Assembly: GCA_977018835.1 (NCBI GenBank)
Contig: OZ361258.1
Location: 3,224,001 to 3,288,000 of the forward strand
Direction of reading: 5' to 3'
Origin: Minutocellus sp. GHC0000111
Taxonomy: Eukaryota
DNA length: 64,000 nt
Positions 3,181 to 41,664 of the stretch are shown here, one piece after another (position 1 is the stretch's first letter; each line of letters opens with the position of its first letter). Made by a program: the position numbers and the translations under genes. Below the pieces are notes generated by a model. It was not told where the DNA came from, searched no databases, and saw only the letters and a list, made by a program, of their open reading frames with translations.

Positions 3181-4126
3181 GGTTTGTTTTACATGTATGT
3201 ACAAGCCAAGTACTTACTTACTCGCATGGTCGAGAAAGAACAATCGTAAAGTTAAAGCAGACCTCCGATCAAGAGGAAAACGTGCAGGTGCACATTAAAA
3301 AGGGCGGTGATTCCGCTGTGAATGCTCTCGAGAGGGCTGACACTGGGTGCAATCAAGGATATTGATCCAAGAAGGGTGGGAACATGTCATGCAAAAGATC
3401 TTTGCAAATTTGCAAAAGTCAGATCTTTGCTTTGACACTGCTACGTACACTGACTGCGCCGCCTCGCTCGTTGATGTCTTCTACGCCGTACCTACGAGGT
3501 CGCGGACAGCAGTTTCAGGGACCCGGTTTTCGGGTCTTTGGGCAAAATCTCATAAAAATCAGCACAAACGCACGCAGCAAGCAGCACTCATTTGCTGTCG
3601 TCCTGTCTTCAAGATGGCGGTGACGGCAGTGCCGACGGCATCCGCTTCACGCAAGGGATAAGCGTGGTATCTCCAGAACGGGTTGGTCCTTGACCTTGGA
3701 CCGACTCGGAGATATCGATTTCATCTTCCCATGCCAGCGTCTGGCCGATTCACCCCATCCATCGCCCCTCCCGACTGCTTCTGCCAGTTTTTCCGATGAC
3801 AACCAGTCACCTCCTCCACCTCCCGACCCCACCACCACCTCCCAAATGCATTGATTCAAGTAGCCACATGGTTTGAGCTCCGATATCGGTCTCCATGGTC
3901 CCCATAATGGCGTATCTTATGCGGTCCGGGTGACCCCGCGCCAAAATCGAGCGGGCCAAAAAATCATCACCCGCCCGGCGCGCCCGCCACTCAATGAAAC
4001 CTTCCTCATTTCCAACCCACCCGACATACAAACTGTTGCTCTACTGCCACAAAATACTGCATCCAACACCATGTTAATGCAAATGGCTGTCACTGCTGCT
4101 GCTGCCACCGCAGCTGATGCGCCAGC

Positions 4127-7018
4127 ATGATGATGTCGCCCCGCTCCCGTCGGTCCGGCAGCTCCATCCCATGCTTTGATTGTTTTGTCCATCGGAGCGG
4201 CACCATCGATGCCTCTGCGATTCGTGGCAAGTCTCCTGGGATGATCCAGACCACCACAGCGAACCGGGCATGGGCGGGCCTCTCACTACAGAAACAGCAG
4301 GATGTTGTGGAGCAAGCCCGAGAGGAGGAGCTGTGCTGTCCGAGCCAGACCGGTCCTGATCCGGCACAAGATGTGCCGATTTCTCAAATTCAAATTGCTC
4401 GGCGCAATTCGTCATCCAATAACGCCGATGCCAGCCCTGAGCCGACGGTCGAGGACAATGCTGGTGTCGCTGCTCGTCCTGGTGATGACAATGTCGAAGC
4501 TGGGGGCATCGCCGAGTCCATGGCTAACAGTGAAGAATCTGGCAATCCTGCCAGTGTCGGTGTTTCTGCTACCGGCACCGCCAATTCTGGTGGATCGACC
4601 GAGGAGAATTTGGATGTGCTGCTGTTGAGGCCGAAGCGCAACACAAAGCTGCAGAGGAGGCTTTGAAAGGGCTAAGGGATGCCTTGAAACGAGAAAAGCG
4701 GAAGGATGAAAAGGCCATGGTCGATGCCGAGAAGAAAAGGAACAAAATGAAGGAGGCGATGCGTCATTTGGAGCAGAGGGCACAAATGAGTGAACATCTT
4801 CGGTCGCACAGGATGCCGACGGATGCACCACCCGAACGCAAGAAAGCAATGAGAATGGAAGACAACATGCGACCTGCCATCAGCATTGGGGAACATGTCC
4901 TTGTGTCTGCCGACTTCAGTCCCAACATGAATCGGCCTGAGGGCAAGGGATTTGTTGTGGTCAGTCGAGGTGTCGGTGGAGGCACTCTTTGCGATGTCCA
5001 GCATGAGAAGCCTTTTGGTGGCATGATGCATGAGAATGTGCCTCTCAAGGCCATCACCCCGATCCCACTCGGCCTCAACACCGATTCAATTGCCAAGGAC
5101 AGGCGCAAACGGACAGCAGCTGCTCAGGCGGGGATGGATAGCAGTGTTGACAGCGCCGGTGCCAACAAGCGCAAAGAGCGATGGCAGTCCGATGGAGACT
5201 CTTGTCGGAAAGCTTTTGCATGGCATGCGACACAGGAAGAAGGATGGATATCTTCGAAAGGAGGCGAATCGAGCAACCAAAGGCAAGAAGGGATTGAACG
5301 ACGAGGACAAGAGCATGCTTTTTGCCCAGGGGTTGCTTGCTTCTGGAAGTGCATTTGAAGAGCACCGGAGGGACGCAGCACTCAAGTAGGAACAGTTCAT
5401 CGCACAAGTTTCAGTCGGATGGGAGGGTCACTATTCGTGAGCTCTGCAGAGCGTGGGGGAAGGGTAAGAATGGGCTGCGAGACATCCAGAACGAGTCTCG
5501 GAAGAATGCCATTGCCCGGGGCACACCAGCAGATCAGGCCGAGCTTGCATTTGTCACCCCCGCTCCCAAGGATTCGTCGGTTCGGCCAAAGTCTACCATT
5601 GACAATTACAAGACGGCTGAGCAGTGCTTTACTGCTAAGCGCCTGTATGCAATCAATAAGTGCAGAGAGGCAAAGGAAGACTGCTATGATTCTGCATCGA
5701 AGGAGGCTGACAATGAGTTGCTCAAAACGCACCTGACCGAGCACGACACCATCAGCGACGATGACAAGCAGCTGTGGGAGCTGAAGAGGCGGGAGCACTT
5801 GGCAAGGCAGCCGTACCTAGGCACATACAGAACGACATTGTTGCGGCCCTTTCCAGCAATCCTCAGCGATCGTTCCGTGGTTTGGAGCAGGACATTGGTC
5901 TGTGGTGCTCGCACAAGACGATTGAGCGGTGGCTCAAGTCATTCGACACCTTCACTTTCTACAAGGAGCGGCTGGTACCGCGCCTGTCGGAGGCTCAAAA
6001 AGCTAAGCGTCTGGCCTTTGCTCAGCTCATGCGGAATTTCTGGAACATTCGGGATGAGAACGGCAATTTACCGAATGGAAAGAAGCGAGTTCTCCTCGTG
6101 CATTACGATGAGAAATGGTTCTGGGGTCTCGTCCTCCGAGCTTTTGCGAAGGCTTGCGAGGAAATCGGCGTGAAAAAGCGAGATTACGCGGCCTTTCACA
6201 GGAGCCACATCAACAAGGTCATGGCCATTGCATTTGTTGCCGCTGTCTTTGACGGTTCTCTTGAGAGTGGGTGCGAGGTTGTAAAACTGCCACTGGTACG
6301 AGCTCAAGCTCCTAAAATAGCGGAGCGAGCTCAGTACGAAGCAGTATCACAGCCTGATGGTTCAATACGGTACCCAAATACCAACCCCGATGGGACACCA
6401 AAGGAACCTCTTCGCCGGAAAGGAGAGTCGTTTCTTGTTGATTGTTGCGTTACTGGATCGAACGAAGGCACCAAAAAGGATCCGAAATGCTCTTTGCTCC
6501 TCGTATTCAAGGAGACTATTTTCCCAGCGATTCTCAACCTTGTCGGTCCGGGCAAGCAATACGAAGATTGCCATGTTATTATCCAGGGCGACCAGGCCGG
6601 GCCTCACGAGGACGGAACCTTCACGCAATTTGTTACTAACTTCTGTGCTGAGCAAGGCTGGACGTGGCAGCCACAGGCACCGCAGATGCCTCACGCCAAC
6701 GTCCTTGACTTGAGCGTGTTCCCCGCGATGAGCCGGCGGCACTCGGAATGGGCACGAAAAATGGTAGGCACCTCCGTCATTTCCACCGACCAGATCTGGG
6801 ACACTGCCGAGGACGTTTACGATAGCATGCCTAACTGCAAAATTGCTTCGGCCTTCATTCAGTACTGGAGGATAATGGGCCTGGTGATTAAGGCCGGTGG
6901 TAGCAATGAGTTTGTTGGAAGGTTGGGTGACGAAAACTTGCACACTGGAATTAGGATCGACTTCAACGAAACGGCCAAGGGGATGGAGCCCTCAGCTCGT
7001 CATCCTTCTAATAAATAG
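4127..7018 (+). pseudogene. Mariner-like DD38D transposase with long N-terminal extension, frameshifted
   Basis: Catalytic motifs VHYDEKWFW, IIQGDQAGPH and QAPQMPHANVLDLSVF resemble plant-type mariner HIDEKWF / QQDNAxPH / QPPNSPDLNVLDL; 38 residues between 2nd and 3rd Asp by my count. Upstream overlapping ORFs join through frameshifts near 4664, 5176, 5331 and 5816. Confidence 0.88.
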
Positions 7019-7113
7019 ATAGTATTAATATCTTTACACATGTATTAAATAAATATTACACGTCTACAAATTATTTATAGATCTACATGTAAGATGCAGC
7101 AGCATTGGTTTGT

Positions 7114-8252
7114 TTATATCACGGTGGGCTTCTTTGTTCTTCTATTTCTACCGGTATTCTTTTTTGCCTCCTTGGCCTTCTTATGATCATTAGAAAGCCA
7201 CACAGCGTGGAGGGACTGACGAATCTTTCCGCGCTTCACACCATATGCATCGGCAAGTTTATTGTCAGTGAGGGCAGGGTGAGCAGTTGGTTGTTTACTC
7301 CCATCCTCATATCCCAACTTATATGCATCTAATGCAATCTTGTCAGTAGATAATGCAATAGAGAATTCTATTGTCTTGTTATCATACAATCCGAGTTCTC
7401 TGCTTCTCCACCCTTTCGGGTAGGCACCACGACCCTCTCTTACTTGGCGATCGACTTCGATCATGCCTAGCACTGTGGTGACCGCGACCTCGCTACCCCA
7501 ACCAGGAACTTGTTTGAAGGGGAGGTAGACCCCTTTCTCTTTTCTTCTTGGTTCGGGCCTCTGACTACATGTGGGTGACTTGTAGTTCTTTATATCTTGT
7601 GGTAGTGGTGCTTCTCCGTACGTCAAAAAGCACGCAAGCCTCCGATGTTCCTCAACCTCTCGTTCAATCTGTCGTTCGGTTGGTTCGGTTGGAGGCAAGG
7701 GCTCCAAGATGGTAGGGGATGACAATTGAAGGTTGCTGAACGACGGGCATGAGCGGCTTGGGGTAAGAGCATACTGAGTATGAACTGACATTGGACTTGT
7801 TACCATGGGCGTGGCGGAGGGAAGGTCGAATGAGCTCACGGGCTTTCTCCTCTCGCCGCTTGGCTTTGCGTCGGCGGTTGCTATGCTCATCTCTGAGAAT
7901 GAATCATCTTCATCAGAATGAGATGAAACGGTAGCGGTACCGCGAAAGTCGGCACGCAATATGTCATGATGCAAGTACTTCCTTGCTTGGGCTTGTTCGG
8001 CGGCGAAGCCATCCTCTTCGTTGTATACTCGCGTCGATATTTCAACACACGAGGAGATGTGAGGTCTGACGATGCCGGTGGGACCCCTTGGTTGTCCTCC
8101 TCGTCATCGTTGTCCTTGTTCTCTCGATACCGCGGATGTTCCGGCGTTTCGTTGGAAGTTTCCTTCTCATGGCGCGAGGGGCTGAATGCAGTCGCCTCGG
8201 CGCGTTTCGGTGGACGCGGTGGACTGAAGATGTGTCCCTTTGGAGTATCCAT
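7114..8252 (-). pseudogene. Second, convergent ORF inside the transposon (unknown function), one frameshift near 7980
   Basis: ORF 7887..8408 (ATG at 8252, MDTPKG...) overlaps ORF 7114..7974 (286 aa, ordered basic C-terminal half); both lie between the TIRs and end in a shared AT-rich 3' spacer 7019-7113. Confidence 0.6.
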
Positions 8253-8733
8253 GAGTATGGAAGCTTCTTGAAGCGCCAGTCGGCAGAAGTTGCCCAGTCT
8301 ATTTGTGGTAATTGCTTGGAGGTCGGTTGTTGACGGATGTGTTTTGATTTGCTTGCTTTGCCGCGTGTTTTTCAAGGTGCGCGCAAACCGCCGTGTCGGA
8401 AAGTCCAAAGACCCAAAAAACCGGGTCCCCGAAATTGCTGTCCCGGACCTCGTAGGTACCTAGGCTAGGTACCTTTACTGTGCGTAGCTAGCCGAGGTGT
8501 CTTGAGAGCTTCAAGTTTCGATGTTGCGACATTGATTTCATTTTCAGGACATTGGTATTCTCGTCAAATCATTCGAACCAAACGAAAGTGATGCAGCCAT
8601 GCAGCCAACCATGATCGGCCATTCCTTCGGCTCTGGCCCTTCCGCGCTCACAGGCCAGGCCGTGCGTGGCTGTTCCCCTGCACTTCTGCGACAACACTTG
8701 CGTCACCGAGCTCAGTATATATACGCAGTAAGA

Positions 8734-11606
8734 ATGGTCGACGGTCAGCCACCCCACAGCGGCGGCGGCGGACAGCGCCGAAGCAACAAGCGCGGCGGAG
8801 GAACCAACTGCAGCAGCACGAAACATGCCAGCGGAACCAGCACGGCCCCGCCGCACCGGTCCAACTTGCGCGGAGACGGCTACGGCGGCGGCGGCAACGG
8901 ATATGCCCACAAGCATCACGGCGGAGGGGGAGGGTACACCGACGACTTTAGCCTGAGCGGCGATTCCTACGACGACGAGGACGGCAGCCACGGCGGAAGT
9001 TCCGTCGACGGACCCATGCTGCGCAACCGCCGGCAGCCGGCCGGGGATCCCCTCGAGCACGTCCAATCGCACAACTACGAACCGGACGAATCCGAGATAT
9101 GGCGCGCCTACACGGCCCAGCAGCACTTTCGCAATCGAGGACAGTGGTGGACCACCGGCAAGAAACGGGCTCTCAAGAGATGGAGTCTGACCCTGCTGAT
9201 TGGGGTTATTCAGGGCATCGTGGCGTTCACGTGTAACATATGGACGCGAAATTTGAGTGCGCGCAAGTTTGATCATGTCAATGCTCTGCTGCAGGGGGAG
9301 AGCTTTGGAGGCGGAGGTGGTGGTCAAGATTTAGGAGATGGTGGCGATGCCTCGACCGACGATCTGTTTCAGGCCGATTTGGGGGATAACAACAATGGCG
9401 GAGATGAGTTTGGTGGAGATGCCTCTGATGGATCCTCCTCCTCCACAGCCGGCACTTCCGGTGGAGGTGGGTTCGCCGCCTACCTCACCTTTTTGCTGTA
9501 CCAAACTGCATTTGCGGCCATTGCCTCCCTGTTCGTGTATCTGGAACCCGTCAGTGGTGGGTCCGGTATACCCGAAATCAAATGCTTTTTGAATGGCATC
9601 GATCTGCCGAGAGTGGTCCGCGTCAAGACGTTGATTTGCAAGGTGGTCGGTGTTACCTTTTCCGTGGCGGCCGGTCTGCCTGTCGGGAAGAGGGACCGAT
9701 GGTAAGTACATTGTTGGAATGCGTGTGGTTTGGAATGTGCATACAGTTATCATATTTTTCACTGAAAAGAATATCTCATCTTTAAATATATTTTATATAA
9801 TACATTATCCACGGACAGGTCCACTCCGGTGCCGTTGTGGCGGCGGGCATCTCGCAGGGCCGGACCAACGTTTGGGGAGTCGATACGTCCTTTTCCAAAT
9901 TCAGTGACTTTCGCAACGATCGCGAAAAGCGGGACTTTGTGGCGTGCGGTGCCGCTGCCGGCGTTACCTCCGCCTTTGGTGCTCCCATTGGTGGTATCTT
10001 GTTCAGTTTGGAGGAGGGTGCCAGTTATTGGTCGACCAAATTGACGTGGAGAGCCTTCTTCTGTGCCATGATCACCCTCGGAACACTCTTTACGGTCAAG
10101 AACTTTGATTCGTGGTGGGGACAGGCCAATATGGAAAAGCTGTTTTCGTTTGGTGAATTCAACTCGCTCACAGGCGACAATGCCAACTTTAGCATCTGGG
10201 AGTTGTCGCTCTTCATCATGATTGGCTGTCTCGGTGGACTCATCGGGGCGGTGTTCAATGCCGCCGACGAGCATTTGACCATCTGGAGGATGAAGAATGT
10301 CAACTACTCAAAGGGCCGACGATTTATGGAGGTCATTTGCGTCAGCATTCTGGTGACGACCGTTTCCTTTGTCATGCCATTGGTTTGGAATCGCTGTACC
10401 GAGCTACCTTCTGACATGGCCGACTGGTCCAACCAAGAGAAGAAGCTCGTGGAGGCATTGGTGCCCTTTCAGTGCGAAGCTGGAAAGGAATACAATGAAG
10501 TGGCCAGTCTGATTTTTACGGATGCCGATACTGCCATCAAGCAACTGTTTCATTTCCGTGAGGCCGGGCAAGATGATTCATCAACCTTTTCGTCTGCGGC
10601 GCTATTCCTCTTCTTCCTTCCGTATATTGCCCTGGCTACCATCACCTACGGCGTAGCCATTCCAAGTGGTTTGTTTGTTCCGTCACTTTTGTCTGGTGCT
10701 GCATTTGGACGTCTCTTTGGTCACTTGCTTCACAAGCTCGATCATACCAGCGGGACCTTTGCCGACAGTGGAACCTATGCGTTGATGGGAGCGGCAGCGG
10801 TGTTGGGCGGTATGGCCCGAATGACTATTTCACTCACCGTCATTCTATTGGAAGCCACCGGCGATATGCAGTATGTTTTGCCTCTCATGTTTACGTTGAT
10901 GGTGGCACGATTCACAGGAAATGTCTTCAACGAAGGTCTGTACGACATTCACATCAAACTGAAGAATATTCCATTCCTGGAGCCAGAGGTACCAACAATC
11001 GCCGAGAAGCACGAAATTGTGGCAGGCCAAGTCATGAGTACCGATGTCAAGTGTTTGCGGCCTGTGGAGAGGGCCGGCGTTGTATATGATTTACTGCGAA
11101 ATTGTTCGCATGGCACCTTCCCCATCGTCGATACAGCCAGTAGTGGAACGCTGTATGGAACAGCCGCTCGGTCCATGCTGTGCACTTTACTGCAACGGCG
11201 AGCATTTGGTCCACCAGATGCCTTGTCGGATTATGACGAGGGTGGCGGCTGTGATAGCCTTGGACCGCGCCGGTTAAGCCCGTTGGTTCAGTGGGATACC
11301 ATTGAGCGTGTCTATCCGAGATATCCAACGATTGACGATGTTGACATGCGAGCTGGAGATCGGAATTGTTGGTTGGACCTTCGACCATATGCAAACACAG
11401 CACCCTACACCGTCAACGAAACAGCTTCTATTCAGAGAACATATCGGTTGTTCCGCACACTTGGCTTGCGATTTCTGTGCGTCGTCAATCACCACAATCA
11501 GGTCGTTGGCATCATCACCCGCAAAGATTTATTACCCGAGTCGTTGTCAGACAGCCTCATGCGTGGGCGAAATGCTCACATGAATACAACCTACGGTTTC
11601 GATTAG
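8734..11606 (+). CDS. CLC: CLC family Cl-/H+ antiporter (CLC-6/7-like) with two CBS domains
   Basis: Motifs GSGIPE, GKEGPM, LFSLEE, PSGLFVP, EGLYD and C-terminal CBS pair. Intron 9702..9818 (GTAAGT..CAG). GKEGP requires a one-base frameshift correction at ~9690. Confidence 0.93.
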
Positions 11607-11701
11607 ATTGATATAACTTGAATGCACATACATAGTAAGAAAACTAAGCACGCAACTTTCATATTAGATGCAATGCGGTTTTATTCACTATTTTATATAC
11701 T

Positions 11702-13010
11702 CTAGAAAATGCCCAGGGCCGTGGTGATGGCAAATACAATGAAAAGGGATCCGCCGATGATGGAAATTGCCTTCTCCGAAATGTACTTGGAAATGTAAGC
11801 TCCACCAATCACAGCAATGCCAGTAGCGATGCCACTGTTGATTATATTGAAATGTAAAGAAAGTTAGAGACAAACCAGGGATATATCGACGACACATTAA
11901 TCATCCTTGAGGTAAAACAAAACTTCAGGGGAGTATAATATAAATCAAAGAAACTCACTGCGCAGCAATTGATCCGGCGGCAACGGCAACAGGGTTCTGG
12001 GCAGCCGAAAGAGCAATGGTCGAAAGGAAGCTGCGGTCGCCAAATTCAGCAGCAAAGACGAGAGCAAAGGTCGACGCAATCTGCGTCAATGCGGTGGTCT
12101 TTTTTATGGTGTCACTCTCATTGACAGTCTCTTCTGCTTCTTCCAACTCTTCGTCCATGAAACTGGAACCCTCCCCATCCTCAAATGCCTCGGCCAAGAT
12201 CTTGATACCAAAGAAAAGGAAGGCCGCGGCAGCCGCAATATCATCGAGGGGCAATCCCTGCGACAAACCACTTGGCACAGCATGGAAGATCTGACCGATG
12301 AGCACAGCCAAAATGGTCATGACGGCCAGGGCGCCCAAACTACCCACGAACGAAACAAATCTCGACAACTTGGCAGCCAACAAACCGGCAACAAAGAATG
12401 TTTTGTCTCCAATCTCCGAAAGAAACACCAAACTGAAGGACTGGTAGAAACCCGAATCGGAAAGCTGCTCCGACAACGTCGAGGCAGTGTCGATGGAACC
12501 ACCGACGATGCTACCGAGTTCGGCCACGGCGGCATGCGAGGCCTGGGGAAAAGCCGCAAGAGCCACGGCAGCCGTCGTAGCGACACCAACAGGAACAATA
12601 TTGCGCCGAATGAACTTGAGCGGTCCAGCAGGAGGCTGCGATGCCACGATGTCTTCCACTTCCTTGTTTTGCAGAGGCTTGGCATACATGCTACTGCCGC
12701 TGCGACTCCGGCTGAAATTTATGTTCGTGCTGGAATCCAAATAGTTGACGGCATTGAAAGGAGATACCACAAACGCATTGTGGATGCCAACGGGACTCCC
12801 GGTGCTGCAAATGATAGAGATGATTGGGGAGGAGGACGTGAGGCACAAATCAAATAAATCAGCAACTTTTCAAAAAGCCAGCACGTGTCGTGCTGGTTTC
12901 ACTAAAATTGAGGCAACACAAACTCACCTGAAACCCTCTACAGAGGGCGAGAGAGCAGCGAGCAGCAGTGCCGCCGCCGCCAAGGCCGTCCGTACCTGCT
13001 TCATCATCAT
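11702..13010 (-). CDS. GDT1/TMEM165 (UPF0016) Mn2+/Ca2+ transporter, plastid-targeted (PAM71-like)
   Basis: EIGDKT and EFGDRS motifs. Three exons: 13010-12928, 12804-11959, 11834-11702, with GT-AG introns in frame. Signal peptide [27 protein letters not shown] followed by a Ser-rich transit-like region. Confidence 0.9.
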
Positions 13011-14989: not shown

Positions 14990-15851
14990 CGGACAAAAAA
15001 TCATAGTGCTCCCCAGAAGAACCGAATTTTCCCATAGGAGAATCACTCATCTTCAACCAAGTTCGTCCTCCAACGCGGACGAAAGCAAGCGACAATCGAC
15101 GCTCCTTTTCGGAAGCAACAATGGCCATCGAAGCCAATTTCCAGCATGCCGCGACCACCGCGAAAGGTTTTTCGACGCGTGTCTGTGGTTGGTTGTTGTG
15201 ATTTTTATTTTTTGGCTCGAGAAAATCAAATTGACACATCTTGTGCCGCTTTTTCATGACTTCTTTGTGCTTGCCGATCGATTTTTTAACATCCCATGCT
15301 CTGATTTCGATCGGACCAAGACGGAACACGTGCCAAGAGACATGTTGACAAGCGATCCACAAAGCATCGCCTTTGGATTCATCCGACAGCGCCCGTCGTC
15401 GTTGCCTCTTTTTGTCACATCATCGGCTCGAAAATGAGATGGAAACAGGCCAAAATTAGTGGCTGAACGAATTTTTACATAAATTTATTGTGGTGCTAGT
15501 GGATTCATTTTATCCAAAAAATCGTATCTTGTGCACAATTTCTGCTCTTGGGAAAGCTCTTCACAACACTCTTGAACATGCAACCGAGGCTTTTGATGAT
15601 GCGGAATCGAATGATCATGGTTTGACCATTCGGCAGTTTCTTCAGGAACACGTCAAATCTGGCTCAGAAACCCCCCCCCCCGCATCTTGAGTTTTCGGTC
15701 AATTTGGAGCCCTTCTCGCCTGATTTGGAGCGTGGTCAAACGTTCATTCGATTCCTCATGAAATTTTCAATAAGTCTCATGCGGAGAGTTTTGCGCTAGA
15801 GTTTGTGTGGGAGATAGAAAACGCTCAGGTATGTTCAAAAGTTTTTGTCCG
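14990..15851. mobile_element. Non-autonomous TIR element (MITE), ~860 bp, TA-flanked
   Basis: Termini cggacaaaaa ... tttttgtccg; the symmetry extends to tactacggacaaaaa / tttttgtccgtagta; TA at 14988-14989 and 15852-15853; non-coding interior; ends 79 bp upstream of the CBP/p300 ATG. Confidence 0.7.
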
Positions 15852-35555: not shown

Positions 35556-36328
35556 GGCTAGCTTAGTAGTGGGTATCTTTACCAGATGCCAACGGCACGG
35601 AACGAGCACAACACGTGCTGCCTGCCTGGACTGATGGATTGTTCGAAGGGCAAGCAAGCAAGAACCAGCAAAAGAACGAAAACGACCGATCTGATCGGCG
35701 ATGGAGACACCCGGAGGGCATTGGCCACAAACCGTTATATTTCGGAATGACGTCGTAAAATTCGGACTTCCGGAAAGAGGCCTTTCAAGCGCGAAACCCT
35801 CACAAAATAGCAAGGGCCTTACTTACATGTACCTACGTACTACGTAGTAGGTACACTGACTGTGTGTCACTCGCCACTCGCTCGAACGAATGACGCACGC
35901 ACGCGCTCAGAGCGTCGCACAGCCAAGCACACAAGCTCGGCGAGGTTTATGCATGAGGAACAGCGCCCTAACAAAAAGAACAGATTGGAACAAACCAGTG
36001 CTACCACCCGTTGATTTCCGATGCTACATACATGTAAACGCACGTGGTGTGCCGACGGCTGAGTCTCAGCACAGCCGTTATCCCGTTTTGCATTTTTGGC
36101 GAGAGGCGAGCAGCAGCGGAAGGCCTTCTTCGTTCGGCCGTTCGGCGCGACATGCATGCATGCATGGCACACACAGCATAGCATAGCACAGTCCAGAGAG
36201 CCGTTATCATATGCGCAGTAGCGCATCTCGATCTCTTTCACTCTCCTACGTAGCTAGATCTACAGTGCTAGTCTAGTAGCAGCAGCACACCCACACCACC
36301 GTCAAGGGGGAAGTAGCTAGCAGAAACG

Positions 36329-36997
36329 ATGACCAAGCAACAGGAGTACATTCCCGTCGCCATCTACAGCAGCGGCAACGATGTCTGCTGCCTTGCCGAG
36401 CCGCTGCTGAAAGCCGACGACGAGGAGGAGGGCAATGCTACTGCGCAAGGACACAAGTAAGTATTGCTGCTGCTTCGACATGCGCCGGGCGGTCATCATC
36501 TTGATCAACCTCATCGACTATGTCTTTGTTTTCTTTTTCTTGGCGGGGTTTTATTGCTCTGGCGAGGAGGAGAGCAAAGAAGAGTCTGATCTCTCTGACG
36601 ACTGCACGCCCCTAACATTGCCACTGAACTCTGATTCTGCTTTCCTTGCTTGTGCATTTGCACTCAAGATATTGCTCAATGGCCTAGGCGTTTATGGCGC
36701 CGCTTCGTTCAAAATCTGGCCGGTGGCTCTTTGCCTCGGTGGTCACATTTGCACTTCACTCTTTTTGAAGCAGCAACGTTTGTATACAAAATGCTTCTCT
36801 CTTTTGTCATCTTCATGGTCACAGACATGGATCACCCCAAAATTATGTTCTTCGTCATGATTCTTCCCAGCATTATTATGTTCTTCGCCTTCGTTGCGTA
36901 CCCGCACCTGCGCTTCATGCACGAGGTCAGGACGGGCGTCATGAGCGAGAAGACCTATCCGAGGGAGCGCTCTGGTCTTCTTACTCTCTGCTGTTAA
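36329..36997 (+). pseudogene. Frameshifted paralog of the 38100-38693 membrane protein
   Basis: MTKQQEYIPV..EPLL..GHK|YCCCFDMRRAVII..YPHLRFMHEVRTGVMSEKTYPRERSGLLTLCC; 4-bp insertion TAAGTA at 36458-36463 and a second frameshift near 36750. Confidence 0.8.
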
Positions 36998-37075
36998 TGA
37001 ATGAATGAATCATGCGGAGATTACACATGCATACACGAAGGCAAAGGAGTACCAGCCTCATAGTTCTCAACATAG

Positions 37076-37200
37076 CGTTCAATCGAGACGAATGGAAGCA
37101 CCGCCCCTCTACTCTAACTTCCGAGAGAACTCGATTTGAATAGATTCCCAATACATGTACTAAACATTATAACATGAAGTTGGAAGTGAAGTTTTATCGC
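37076..37200 (+). repeat. Dispersed 3'-flank repeat, also at ~41248-41380 and partially at ~37713-37740
   Basis: Shared cgttcaatcgagacgaatg, ccgagagaact.gatttgaatag.ttcccaatacatgta and tataacatgaagttggaagtgaa. Confidence 0.85.
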
Positions 37201-38099
37201 TTTTGCCATAGACTTTACACTTTACTTATTTGGAGTGCAAAGAGGGGCGAACGACATGCTTTCGTCATTATCTTGTCCTTTAAGCAGGGACTTTTGCGAG
37301 CCCCTAGTCTACGTCAAAAATATTGTATCGAGCTATCACACACGTTTAGAGAGATGATATGTGCAATGTGCTTGATTGGTACTCTCTTCATTCTTGGAGT
37401 ATATCTTGCGAAAGAAGAGCGATAGCAGCACAGTTTTAGGCCATTGCCGCCGCCACCACCCTCTCGATGATGACTTTCATCGGCTGGATATCCCGCGTAC
37501 CTCTGAAGATTCTTGTTCAGGCCAAACCCAAAAAGGGGAAATGACAGATCACTATCAGAGCATCTGCCAAGTCTCAAAATGATTCTTTGCCTCCTCAGCG
37601 ACCTTGCTGCCTCTCCTCTCGAGTCTCGAACAAAATGCAGTCGTGATATCTTGTGTAGGGAGAGACCGCGGGCAATGGCACCAGCAATCGCTCGACGATA
37701 GAGGTGTACATGTATAACATGAAGTTGGAAGTGAAACACATTTATCGAGGTGCTGCTTTGCTATACGGTGACAGGAGATTGGAGGGAGGAAATATGTGGC
37801 CGGGTCTACTGTATCGGTCGGCCGTGGCCTAACAAGCTAAGCCCAAGGTAAAATATTTCAGTCCAAATTTTATTAAATTAATGCAATGTTTCACATGTTG
37901 GGATCCTACTAGAAGACTCTAGAGAAAGACAGTAATCATGTCGCGCTCTTTTGATCAAATGTTGAGACAGGGGCTGTTTTCATTCAGAATTGACGATTAA
38001 AGCACTCTTTCGTCTTTTGCTTAAATGCCTTTTATAGTCTATTATGTATTATTTACTCGCTGGTTGGTGGTGGTGTGTCACGCTTCCAGCACACACTAA

Positions 38100-38693
38100 T
38101 TAACAGCAGAGAGGAATTATTCCAGAGCGTTCCCTTGGATAGGTCATCTCGCTCATGACGCCCGTTCTAACCTCGTACATGAAGCACAGGTGCGGATACG
38201 CAACGAATGCGGTGAACATAGTCATAGGGAAAATATAGTCCTTCCCAACTCCGAAGATGAGATAGAATCCGAGACTGTGAGCGGCGAGGCAAAGAACCAC
38301 CGGCCAGCACTTGAACGCCGAGGCGCCGTAAACGCCCAGGCCGTTCAGCGGAGTCTTGAGCACGGCAACATGAGCAGCCACAAGGGAGACGGATTTGAGA
38401 AATGAAATGATTTGTGTCAAAGCATCGGGTGTCGTGTTGTCGCTAACAAGGACGCCCAAGTCAACCAGCGCCAACACGACGGCACACAACATAGAGAAGA
38501 GGAAGAAGATTGCAAAGTCGATAACGTTTACAATGATGACCGCCCGACGCATGTCAAAGCAGCAGCAATATTTGCGCCCTAGCGCAGGAGCGCCCTCCTC
38601 CTTGCCCGGCAGCAGCGGCTTGACACGGCGACCATCATGATCAGCATCATTGTTGAAGATGGGGACGGGAATGTATTCTGCTTGATTCGACAT
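38100..38693 (-). CDS. Small multi-pass membrane protein (CCCFDMRRAVII family)
   Basis: 197-aa ORF with 3-4 hydrophobic segments, Cys cluster before TM1, C-terminal CC; clear paralog on the opposite strand at 36329-36997. Confidence 0.8.
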   Translation of the reverse strand: MSNQAEYIPVPIFNNDADHDGRRVKPLLPGKEEGAPALGRKYCCCFDMRRAVIIVNVIDFAIFFLFSMLCAVVLALVDLGVLVSDNTTPDALTQIISFLKSVSLVAAHVAVLKTPLNGLGVYGASAFKCWPVVLCLAAHSLGFYLIFGVGKDYIFPMTMFTAFVAYPHLCFMYEVRTGVMSEMTYPRERSGIIPLCC

Positions 38694-38818
38694 CGTCGTT
38701 GAATGGCTTGTACGAGATGAAGAAAAGGATATCTTGACTGCAGCTTTTTAATTTTATTTATGTGCCAGGCGATCTTTCGGCAACATGTAACTGAGTCTAA
38801 TGCTTTTCCAAATCGTTG

Positions 38819-39665
38819 AGTGAATCCCTTAGCGTAACGTATTTTTCTGGCTGAGTCATTCTCTTCACCTCGCCGAGCTTGTGTGTGCTTTCCTTCGGCA
38901 GGATATCCCGCGTGCCGTCGAAGATTCTTCTTGAGGCCTAACCCAAAGTGGGGAATAACTGAAGAATCACCCAAAGAGATTCTCAAAATCATGCAATGCT
39001 GCATGTGTTGGTTAATCGATTTTGCTGTTCTTCATGTAAACCCCCGAGAGCTGACGTATGTCCCTCTGGCTGAGTCATTCTCTCTCCACCTCGCCGAGTG
39101 GCTGTTTTCCTTTCGCCTTCGAAACGGGATATCCCACCTCGCCGAGTGTGCTAATGTGCGTGCCTTCGACGGGATGGTACAATTTAGCGGTTGCGAAAGG
39201 GTCCGCTCTTTTCGTCCTGTCGAGGCCTTATTTTTGTTGACATGCTTTGTGTGCTTCCCTGCGACAGAAACGCCTGTGAGGCCTTTTTGGCCCACTGGTA
39301 TGATCCGCCATAACGGAGGATTTCAGCATCTCAAGAAAACGATTTTAATGCGGACCCTCGTTTAAAGGAAACCCAAATCATGGCTTACGGTAGCCGGTCG
39401 CTGAGTCAGTCCCTCCACCTCGCCGAGTTTGCTTGTGTGCTTCCTTTCGGCGGGATAGCGCCTGATGCAAGATTCTTCACTGTGCTAACCCAGAATGGGG
39501 AATATGTGAAGAATATCTCAATAAAGTTTCTTACAATACGCAATCAACAACGCAATTCTGTGCACACACCTGTATCTATTTGTCATTCTTCGAATGAACC
39601 CCAAGCCTGACGTATGCCGCGGGCTGAGTCGTATCCGCCAATGTCGCCGAGCACTTTGTGTGCGG
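38819..39665. repeat. Degenerate ~220-bp tandem repeat, 4 units, in a divergent intergenic region; a further partial unit at ~37480-37590
   Basis: Core gctgagtca..cacctcgccgag..tgtgtgc with TGAGTC at 38852, 39071, 39402 and 39625 (spacing 219, 331, 223). Confidence 0.8.
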
Positions 39666-39764
39666 TGCCGGTATCACAAGCTCACGCGCCAGATTTTTTG
39701 CATGGTACTCATCACAATTTCAACAAATCACAATAGTTGAAAGCAATCTCCCCGCACTCTGAAC

Positions 39765-41214
39765 ATGATACTTCTTGCCGGTGGCCACGTGGGCGGCAAA
39801 TCAAATGCCATCCTCCTCGTTTTCACCATTCTCTTCATGACTATCGGCACTGTCGACGCTCATGGATACCTCATGTCGCCTCGTTCGCGTAACTTTCTTG
39901 CACACTCTTCACAGGATGGAAAGGCAGGGTGGGAGGGCGGTGCTAGTGATCCGGCGGTTGACTACAATGTAAGAATAAGAATTCAGGAGTCGAATTGTCT
40001 TCTCTTTTGGTCGGCATCGAAGTCATAAACTTGATTCTATTACTCTTTTTAATTTTATTTGACATTCCTGACATGTCTTCACATTTTACCTTTGATTTCC
40101 AACCGGCACTAACGCCAAATCATTTAATCAACGCCAGCCCCATTCTCTCAATCGCGGAGGTTTGTGCGGTGATAACAGGATCAATCCCCCTTATACCTTT
40201 CCCGAGAATGCCGATGGCGGGCCCATGCCCCTCAATATTCAGGCCACCTACCAGCAGGGCCAGGAGATCACTATTGAGGCCGTCCTGACGGCGCATCACT
40301 GGGGACATTTCGAGGTCAAGGCATGTCCCCTCGCTCGGCATGGCGACGCCCCGACGCAGGAGTGCTTCGATCAGTACCCGTTGACATTTGTTGAGGACTT
40401 GATCAATCCTGATTCTCCCAACGACCCTGACTATCCTGGTCGTGCCTACCTTTCCTCTAGGTCTAAGTCGGGTCAAGCCAACTTCGGCAATCCAGCCGGC
40501 ATTCTGTTCCGTCAAAAGTTCAGGCTGCCCTCCAACCTCAACGGACAGATTGTGCTCCTTCAGTGGTACTACAGAACAGGTAACTCCTGCTACAGTCCTG
40601 GATATGAAAAGTACTTCGGTACGGGGTGGGGAGCCGCCCGATCGGATCTTCCCACGTGCCCTAATCCTATCAGTTCGCGCGGCGATGGTGTTCCTGAGCA
40701 ATTCTGGAATTGCGCAGAAATCACCATCAATCGCGGACCCGGTGCATCGCCCACCCCTCCAGCAATTAACCCCCCAGCTCCGGTGCCAGCGCCAACAATT
40801 AGGGGTGGATCCCCAACTCCTCCCTCTTCGCCTTCCTCCTTGAAATCAGACTGGTCCACGTGCTCTTCGAGTGCCGAGTGCCGCGTCTGGACCGATGGTA
40901 CGGGTTGTTGCACCGGCAAGTACTCCCGTGGAGTTGGCAAGTGCGCGCCTTTGTCTCAAGGCTTCAACCAAGAGACCAACGAGTGTATCATTGGCGGTAG
41001 TGGTCCCTCACTGCCGGCAACCGCCCCTCCACCATCGGCCAACCCTCCTGCTGGTGCGAAATCAGACTGGTCTGCCTGTTCTTCGAGTGCCGAGTGCCGC
41101 GTCTGGGCCGATGGCACGGGTTGCTGCACCGGCAAGTACTCCGGTGGAGTCAGCAAGTGCACGCCTTTGTCTCAAGGCTTCAACCAAGAGACCAACGAGT
41201 GTGTTATTTATTAG
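39765..41214 (+). CDS. Secreted lytic polysaccharide monooxygenase (AA15/AA10-like, chitin-binding type 4) with Pro linker and two Cys-rich repeats
   Basis: Signal peptide ending VDA|HGYLMSPRSRN gives an N-terminal His; LTAHHWGHFE; LLQWYYRTGNSC; PEQFWNCAEI; intron 39969..40137 in frame. Confidence 0.9.
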
Positions 41215-41664
41215 TTAATGATGATACCAAAGGCACGTGTGCCACATCGTTCAATCGAGACGAATGAATGCCGCCTCGCTTACTATCTTTGTTGTGTAGA
41301 AGGAAGGCCGAGAGAACTTGATTTGAATAGGTTCCCAATACATGTAAATAGTTATTATAACATGAAGTTGGAAGTGAAACGCTTTACTGTATTGCTACTG
41401 CATTTTGTGATAACTAGAGCATGCAGGGGCCAAAACCACGAAGTAGAGCTGCAGTTCGTCGATGTCCCCGAGGTTTCTGGCTGGCCTTTCGGCGGGCGGG
41501 ATGAGAAAAATAGAAATTATGAATGGAGAAAGAATAGATCGATGCACAGTTGAAAAAGGTTGATAGGACACATATGATCTCCCTCTCTCCTTCTCTTCCC
41601 CGTATTAGTTATTGTATTGGCTATATGAAAATATTCAAATTTAATTGTCTTTTACCGCTACAGC

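Follow-up and report, generated by a model that had tools for sequence, protein, structure and literature searches.

Targeted transitions in foreign and repeated DNA

The closest described process is that of the chlorarachniophyte Bigelowiella natans, in which transitions restricted to TpA arise de novo on integrated NCLDV and virophage DNA and, in some lines, reach ~1000 times the background rate (Mettrop et al., bioRxiv 10.64898/2026.01.13.699255). According to the available text of this preprint, an ADAT2 candidate was proposed, with adenine deamination put forward as a hypothesis only, and its authors suspect transposons as further targets on the basis of Pfam enrichment. Neither "diatom" nor "stramenopile" occurs in that available text, and the accessible main text describes neither a gradient nor a motif extending beyond TpA; its mutation table could hold RTAY. 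Fungal RIP, in the excerpts available, erodes transposons in Neurospora and other fungi through transitions that are specific to a dinucleotide, concentrated in repeats, and found on both strands (PMC7296669). In somatic hypermutation, polymerase eta (pol eta) is described, in the sections available, as producing A→G changes at TA, but also at AA, together with transversions (PMC6423074, PMC7608067).

The process that we describe here shares with that of B. natans, as far as the preprint's available text goes, the T/A→C/G changes at TpA only, their presence on both strands, their occurrence in foreign DNA, and the loss of TpA with a gain of TpG and CpA. It differs in its host, a diatom (stramenopile), and in its target, a multi-copy DNA transposon in which the changes can be followed copy by copy.

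The transposon and its family

The DNA analyzed is a stretch of 64,000 nucleotides, hereafter the window. A neighboring host gene has its named homologs in diatoms (Skeletonema, Seminavis, Mediolabrus, and some under truncated names), and we accordingly take the host for a diatom. The window contains a DNA transposon, with no second copy in its 64 kb, and the following features:

3491..8456, + strand: Tc1/mariner-like DNA transposon of the full-length type, from a multi-copy family (inverted ends, varied flanks, depth, protein clusters)
3489..3490, + strand: left TA target-site duplication, intact in the sequence
8457..8458, + strand: right TA target-site duplication, intact in the sequence; the original insertion site was G-TA-C
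4077..7018, + strand: transposase gene, broken by indels near 4130-4139, 4623, 5170, 5333, and 5815
7114..8103, − strand: second, convergent open reading frame (ORF), 329 aa from stop to stop
5814..5823, + strand: 8-bp insertion matching the footprint pattern of TA, the first 3 and last 3 bases, and TA, the second TA reading CA
8457..8471, + strand: footprint-like string beside the right end, with intact TAs in the sequence

The terminal inverted ends (3488-3541 and 8405-8459) are 89% identical, and sequencing reads show differing flanks behind 8454-8458. The ORFs 4127-4666 and 4663-5358, which the earlier note treated as separate, are frameshifted fragments of one transposase gene of ~970 aa. 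The catalytic D-D-D of the window gene is intact (D697, D858, and D897 in the copy P0037, placed by motif), with 38 residues between D2 and D3, a spacing found in 5/5 proteins counted. The transposase carries a Tc3-type helix-turn-helix (HTH; PF01498, E = 4.7e-10), and the Pfam search of it gave no DDE-domain match. We take the nearest IS630-Tc1-mariner group to be the plant DD39D mariner-like elements, which are defined by 39 residues from D2 to D3, a spacing from which the 38 found here differs. No DD39D elements reported in diatoms emerged from the literature search. The element thus resembles Tc1/mariner transposons in its TA duplication, terminal inverted repeats, HTH and D-D-D transposase, and footprints with 3-base ends, and departs from them in the size and long N-terminal part of its transposase, the 38-residue spacing, and the second convergent ORF. 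The start of that ORF is probably split by a 2-bp insertion at 8024. No Pfam family matched this ORF above threshold (a C-terminal HTH-like match to GntR, E = 0.2, fell under the cut-off), and it had no relatives in 32 related metagenome loci; the shorter related elements L001-L003 lack it. The distant transposase relatives P0015, P0017, and P0020 carry an N-terminal HMG box; Pfam gave no HMG match in the N-terminus of the window family's own transposase.

The family comprises protein clusters of 69, 74, and 35 members (178 in total), and in run X3 the depth was 21248 over the element and 118 over the flank (~180x), an indicative value, depth being no copy number. Many copies lack the segment 4751-6052; in two of these, P0004 and P0005, an in-frame protein of 496-503 aa is retained, which runs straight from the N-terminal part into the catalytic domain, the HTH being absent. 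Non-TpA transitions reach only 0.2-0.3% among copies, so the family is young. The contig of the window's own gene (P0091) equals in length that of the copy P0077, which agrees with an origin of the copies in the assembly of the window. It is abundant and apparently mobile. Contigs of the RNA libraries X2 and X6 contain the element, although presence there does not equal transcription.

The string at 5814-5823 reads TACCTAGGCA, and its 8 bases are missing from the other copies; we read it as a probable excision footprint left by a member of this family, with an altered TA as the earlier note had noticed. Footprint-like marks lie at 5814, 8024, and 8457-8471, all at G-TA-C sites, which suggests repeated insertion and excision in or beside the element. 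Small insertions of 3-8 bases are also clustered at 3775, 4091, 4130-4139, 4250, and 5333, several of them resembling local duplications; they lie in the same half as the TpA mutations described below, and other copies have comparable ones.

TpA depletion of the 5′ half

The composition of the element divides it into the following intervals:

4081..5400: core TpA-depleted stretch, the interval of the earlier note, with 8 TA and 1 RTAY
4675..5138: TA-free run, the longest in the window
3587..5830: hypermutated zone of the window copy, where at least 19 TA sites are now CA/TG; at these, other copies show either TA or the change on the opposite strand
6051..8456: 3′ half of the window copy, with no listed TA→CA/TG change relative to the family majority

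The TpA scarcity reported by the earlier note was reproduced on recounting. Only 8 TpA are present in 4081-5400 (at 4287, 4420, 4525, 4570, 4673, 5139, 5249, and 5387), for an observed/expected ratio (o/e) of 0.124, while 6001-7020 has 33 (o/e 0.56) and the whole window has an o/e of 0.57. In the depleted stretch, TpG (o/e 1.52) and CpA (1.31) are in excess and CpG is at 0.78. It is the minimum among all 1320-bp windows (next non-overlapping value 0.335, median 0.56), and the run from 4673 to 5139 (466 bp) is the longest without TA. The 377 GC-matched (overlapping) windows outside the element contain at least 18 TA each, with a median of 35. Under a Poisson model, 8 TA or fewer have a probability of 9e-9 if the window-wide o/e is assumed and of 7e-4 if an o/e of 0.335 is assumed, values to be read knowing that the stretch was chosen by eye. 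The single RTAY left in it corresponds to 0.8 per kb, against ~10 per kb elsewhere. The 3′ half retains 98 TA.

The mutated zone extends from about 3590 to 5830, beyond the interval first marked. The two ORFs have no Tyr, as claimed, and the His and Cys residues named as lost Tyr are Tyr in other copies and in the aligned outgroup transposases, except at PCFDCFVH, where two of three are Tyr and the third is Phe.

Polarity of the changes

The window sequence 3400-8600 was compared with four read runs, and the following counts concern the 40 substitutions listed out of 52. Of these, 22 oppose TA to CA/TG: at 17 the other copies have TA and the window CA/TG, and at 5 the window has TA and the other copies CA/TG. 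Among the latter, outgroup Tyr places the change in the other copies at 5250 and 5646, and the polarity of 3714, 4420, and 7055 is unassigned. Four more entries correspond to 2 sites read as CA in the window and as TG in the other copies, and the remaining 14 are of mixed kinds. Every one of the 19 TA changes on the window side falls short of position 5750, and none of the substitutions listed changes any of the 98 TA of 6051-8456. The window copy is thus heavily mutated in its 5′ half and clean in its 3′ half.

Polarity was tested because the same differences would result if the other copies had undergone fungal RIP. In 4081-5400, 19 sites that are CA/TG in the window are TA in the outgroup DNA L001, a related element of 70% identity, and 1 site shows the reverse (P = 4e-5); in 6051-7020, the same comparison gave 10 and 13. 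Outgroup transposases also have Tyr where the window has the His and Cys noted, except at the ambiguous position 4957, where they have the window's residue. The family majority and the outgroups carry TA and Tyr, not the His/Cys codons and low TpA of the window copy, so that the refuting outcome named in the earlier note did not occur. At several sites, among them 4073 and 4095, both alleles occur in short-read contigs. Contigs are unbroken over 6381-8457, which is no proof of unmutated copies, since contigs lose variants; copy proteins are mutated at 6560, inside one of them. Likewise, the 32 related metagenome loci have TA o/e values of 0.37-0.69 over the match, none as depleted as the window copy, but these are probably assembly majorities and no evidence of absence.

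Mutation spectrum across the family

Our alignment comprised 45 copy proteins, the 15 listed for each of the three clusters, and excluded near-gap columns. Rates come mostly from proteins and thus concern non-synonymous sites only, in copies that share ancestry; they were computed in the 3′ half, in which the window copy agrees with the majority. In this half, TpA transitions amounted to 68/1076 copy-sites, against 31/16030 for all other transitions and 25/35486 for transversions (20/1248 sites). The TpA transition rate was more than 20 times that of any other change. A site-level test, which is independent of the shared ancestry of the copies, gave 18/38 TpA sites, compared with 12/273 for other T>C and 13/290 for C>T (P ~2e-11 each). 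The A:T→G:C dominance, the restriction to TpA, and the presence on both strands that characterize the B. natans process are thus all found here.

The context was narrow: T>C occurred at 6/2279 TG, 7/2709 TT, and 2/2756 TC copy-sites, and AA>AG at 7/2709, making AA ~24-fold colder than TA. Fungal RIP prefers CpA, and C>T at CA was seen in only 2/1962 copy-sites. CpG transitions (6/1926 in the 3′ half and 11/1631 in the 5′ half) were slightly elevated and far under TpA, not the dominant CpG→TpG/CpA expected of CpG decay. Non-TpA transitions amounted to 43/13246 in the 5′ half and 31/16030 in the 3′ half. These values and the TA→CA/TG polarity agree with the earlier note that the process is neither RIP nor CpG decay. 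It resembles RIP in its dinucleotide specificity, its action on both strands, its erosion of transposons, and what would be a defense-like working. Its target is a repeat, with repetition itself no more than a candidate trigger (the host duplications compared span 50-200 bp). The two differ in that the C→T changes of RIP create TpA and stops, whereas the diatom process removes TpA and can produce no stops, and in that the hits lack strand coordination (20/47 neighboring hits on the same strand, null 22.1).

In 21 Tyr columns, Tyr was replaced by His 56 times and by Cys 39 times, proportions not distinguishable from even (P = 0.10), and never by Arg, for which 8.6 cases would be expected if a second hit were possible; one change therefore destroys the site. 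TA→CG double changes were absent from the copy proteins. His and Cys were both present in 10/21 of these columns, and such alternation at the same codons has TA ancestry as its sole explanation.

Among TA contexts, RTAY was mutated in 60/388 copy-sites and the others in 8/688 (mixed 8/543, YTAR 0/145), and at the site level in 13/14 RTAY and 5/24 non-RTAY (P = 2e-5). The 17 hits listed for the window copy comprise 6 RTAY, 11 mixed, and 0 YTAR, in a list that under-represents the hottest sites. RTAY is thus favored but not required. TAG was the coldest context (0/115).

The changes also followed a gradient, for which the 5′ figures rest on ancestral contexts inferred by hand from outgroups. In copies of the full-length cluster, RTAY Tyr codons were mutated in 50/79 cases before 5800 and in 5/41 after; over all copies, the rank correlation of mutation with position was −0.74 (14 sites, P = 0.0025). 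A local hot patch occurs at 6345-6379, and 2/8 full-length copies (P0037 and P0038) show no 5′ excess. At 6297-6863, deleted copies were mutated in 21/89 cases and full-length copies in 9/69, a comparison made to gauge the effect of distance from the left end, in which the difference was not significant (P = 0.11). Overdispersion of the per-copy load in the 3′ half was not significant (P = 0.15), with no sign of bursts. The conserved Tyr preceding the first catalytic Asp was lost in 3/24.

The tests bear out the earlier proposal of patchy, strand-symmetric TpA→TpG/CpA transitions, confined here to the element, and we put at about 95% the probability of a targeted TpA process as such. Copies differ and the putative excision footprint is itself mutated, and so the process acts after insertion.

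Comparison with host DNA

In the adjoining chloride-channel (CLC) gene, the 39 haplotype differences listed out of 164 comprise 15 transversions and 24 transitions, evenly spread. The share at YpA was 6/39 in this one host gene, against 22/40 in the element (P = 3e-4). Short host duplications (50-200 bp) had 11 YpA among 76 transitions, with no excess. RTAY was not depleted in flanking host DNA (10-14 per kb). The TpA o/e falls as low as 0.32 in host exons, and several AT-rich 500-bp bins outside the element reach TA o/e values of 0.85-1.04. Within this scope, one host gene and window-level TA content, the process is confined to foreign DNA. The data do not support two consequences that the earlier note had drawn. 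As for the destruction of TA target sites, host DNA right of the element keeps 1736 TA. As for the crippling of transposon proteins, the window copy is broken by indels, the change makes no stops, and the family has nevertheless grown to well over 100 copies.

Possible mechanisms

As for the agent, we give roughly even odds to deamination of TpA adenines in transposon DNA by an enzyme of the host. The adenine would become inosine, read as G at copying, through a TadA/ADAT-like enzyme or through methylation followed by deamination. The enzyme could be steered to transposon copies by their chromatin, by RNA, or by transcription starting at the left end, and single hits would accumulate there over many divisions. 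This would explain the clean A→G changes with a 5′ T, and TadA-derived editors are described, in the sources as available, as preferring YA/YAY contexts. The palindromic preference and the absence of strand runs point to hits made singly on duplex DNA, perhaps via methylated adenine. The lack of strand coordination is unlike a processive deaminase of single-stranded DNA, and a palindromic RTAY equally fits a duplex-binding enzyme or DNA shape.

The adenine chemistry proposed in the earlier note agrees with the A→G/T→C transitions at TpA, but a lesion on the thymine side would give an identical spectrum: within the chromatin of transposons, the T of RTAY, oxidized or otherwise altered (to a base of the 5-hydroxymethyl- or 5-formyluracil type), would pair with G and yield T→C, and the near-even His and Cys counts are as compatible with it. 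Dinoflagellates and kinetoplastids have modified thymines on repeats. We know of no TpA-specific thymine modifier in diatoms, and none was evident from the titles and openings returned by our literature search; we regard a thymine lesion as unlikely. Error-prone gap filling by a pol eta-like enzyme at methylated or damaged transposon DNA, with A→G at WA, is a decidedly poor candidate. WA hot spots are the product of pol eta in the excerpts available, which also describe positional decay along the gene; the slightly higher rate of other transitions, CpG included, in the 5′ half and the many small indels of the window copy in that half would fit as well. However, the signature of pol eta in those excerpts includes AA and transversions, whereas AA is cold here and transversions remain at background, and the hits show no strand coordination.

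Damage by the element's own transposase to RTAY targets near copies (local hopping or aborted insertion), repaired into transitions, would account for the insertion site and the footprints at 5814 and 8024 all being G-TA-C, the hot motif, and for footprints that record repeated insertion into the element. Yet breaks should give indels and mixed substitutions rather than clean transitions, single-copy viral DNA in B. natans has the same spectrum in the preprint's available text, and flanking host RTAY is undepleted; we judge this very improbable. There is even less to be said for a genome-wide TpA bias or GC-biased gene conversion visible only under relaxed selection. TpA is indeed under-represented across the window and in host exons, but the AT-rich bins, the flat spectrum of the CLC haplotype differences listed, and the host duplications speak against a general bias, and gene conversion has no dinucleotide context. 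Reverse polarity, with RIP-like CpA→TpA changes in the other copies, could be read into 5 of the 40 substitutions listed, those with TA in the window, three of them unpolarized, and into position 4957; it is refuted for most sites by Tyr and TA in outgroups and by His and Cys at the same codons, while a sequencing or assembly artifact is countered by the two alleles in short-read contigs, and we give this pair of explanations almost no credence. Two other candidates were rejected: the UV TA photoproduct, since such photoproducts lead to transversions, and ADAR-type RNA editing, given the absence of an RNA intermediate, the involvement of both strands, and TAG being the coldest context.

Adenine deamination by a host enzyme may also serve as a defense. 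This role is plausible, if weakly supported; it looks weak because the family is abundant and apparently mobile. A broader and tentative proposal, which we think somewhat more apt to fail than to hold, is that diatoms possess a natural DNA adenine base editor acting as a transposon defense: it would strike duplex RTAY of young insertions in single hits, decay from the left end or promoter, use the same pathway as Bigelowiella, and so be the A-to-G equivalent of fungal RIP, ancient and shared across SAR.

Significance

TpA hypermutation is not new in kind: the earlier note had not decided whether it was already described, and its signature matches that already reported in the available text on B. 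natans. Within the literature searched, what is new is the host lineage (a diatom), the DNA-transposon target followed copy by copy, the wider motif, and the gradient. The search, with most subscription journals outside its coverage, found no TpA hypermutation in diatoms, and neither copy-level proof on a DNA transposon nor the RTAY motif or the gradient. Targeted A:T→G:C genomic mutation is otherwise documented, in the same literature, in one preprint on one rhizarian alga. The RTAY motif, the no-double-hit rule, and the positional gradient are constraints on the enzyme, and well over 100 near-identical copies provide a ready assay. Should the enzyme prove to be a DNA adenine deaminase, nature would have its own version of the engineered adenine base editors. 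In diatoms, the process also skews the dating of transposons and measures of composition that rely on TA.

Other observations in the window

Over 8837-11850, runs X1, X3, and X4 contain the chloride-channel locus in a second version, either another haplotype or a close relative, with up to 15 differences in 232 bases and about half depth in X3 and X4; this second version was not seen over 8503-8836, beside the insertion. An intergenic region at 15001-15800, upstream of a histone-acetyltransferase-like gene, has a TpA o/e of 0.25-0.31 at 46-49% GC and a 246-bp TA-free run, and could be an older mutated remnant. Finally, the region 36300-41400 contains clustered short direct and inverted duplications (72-91%), including an ORF with tandem Cys-rich repeats, which is presumably chitin-binding/LPMO-like, a label given from its motif.
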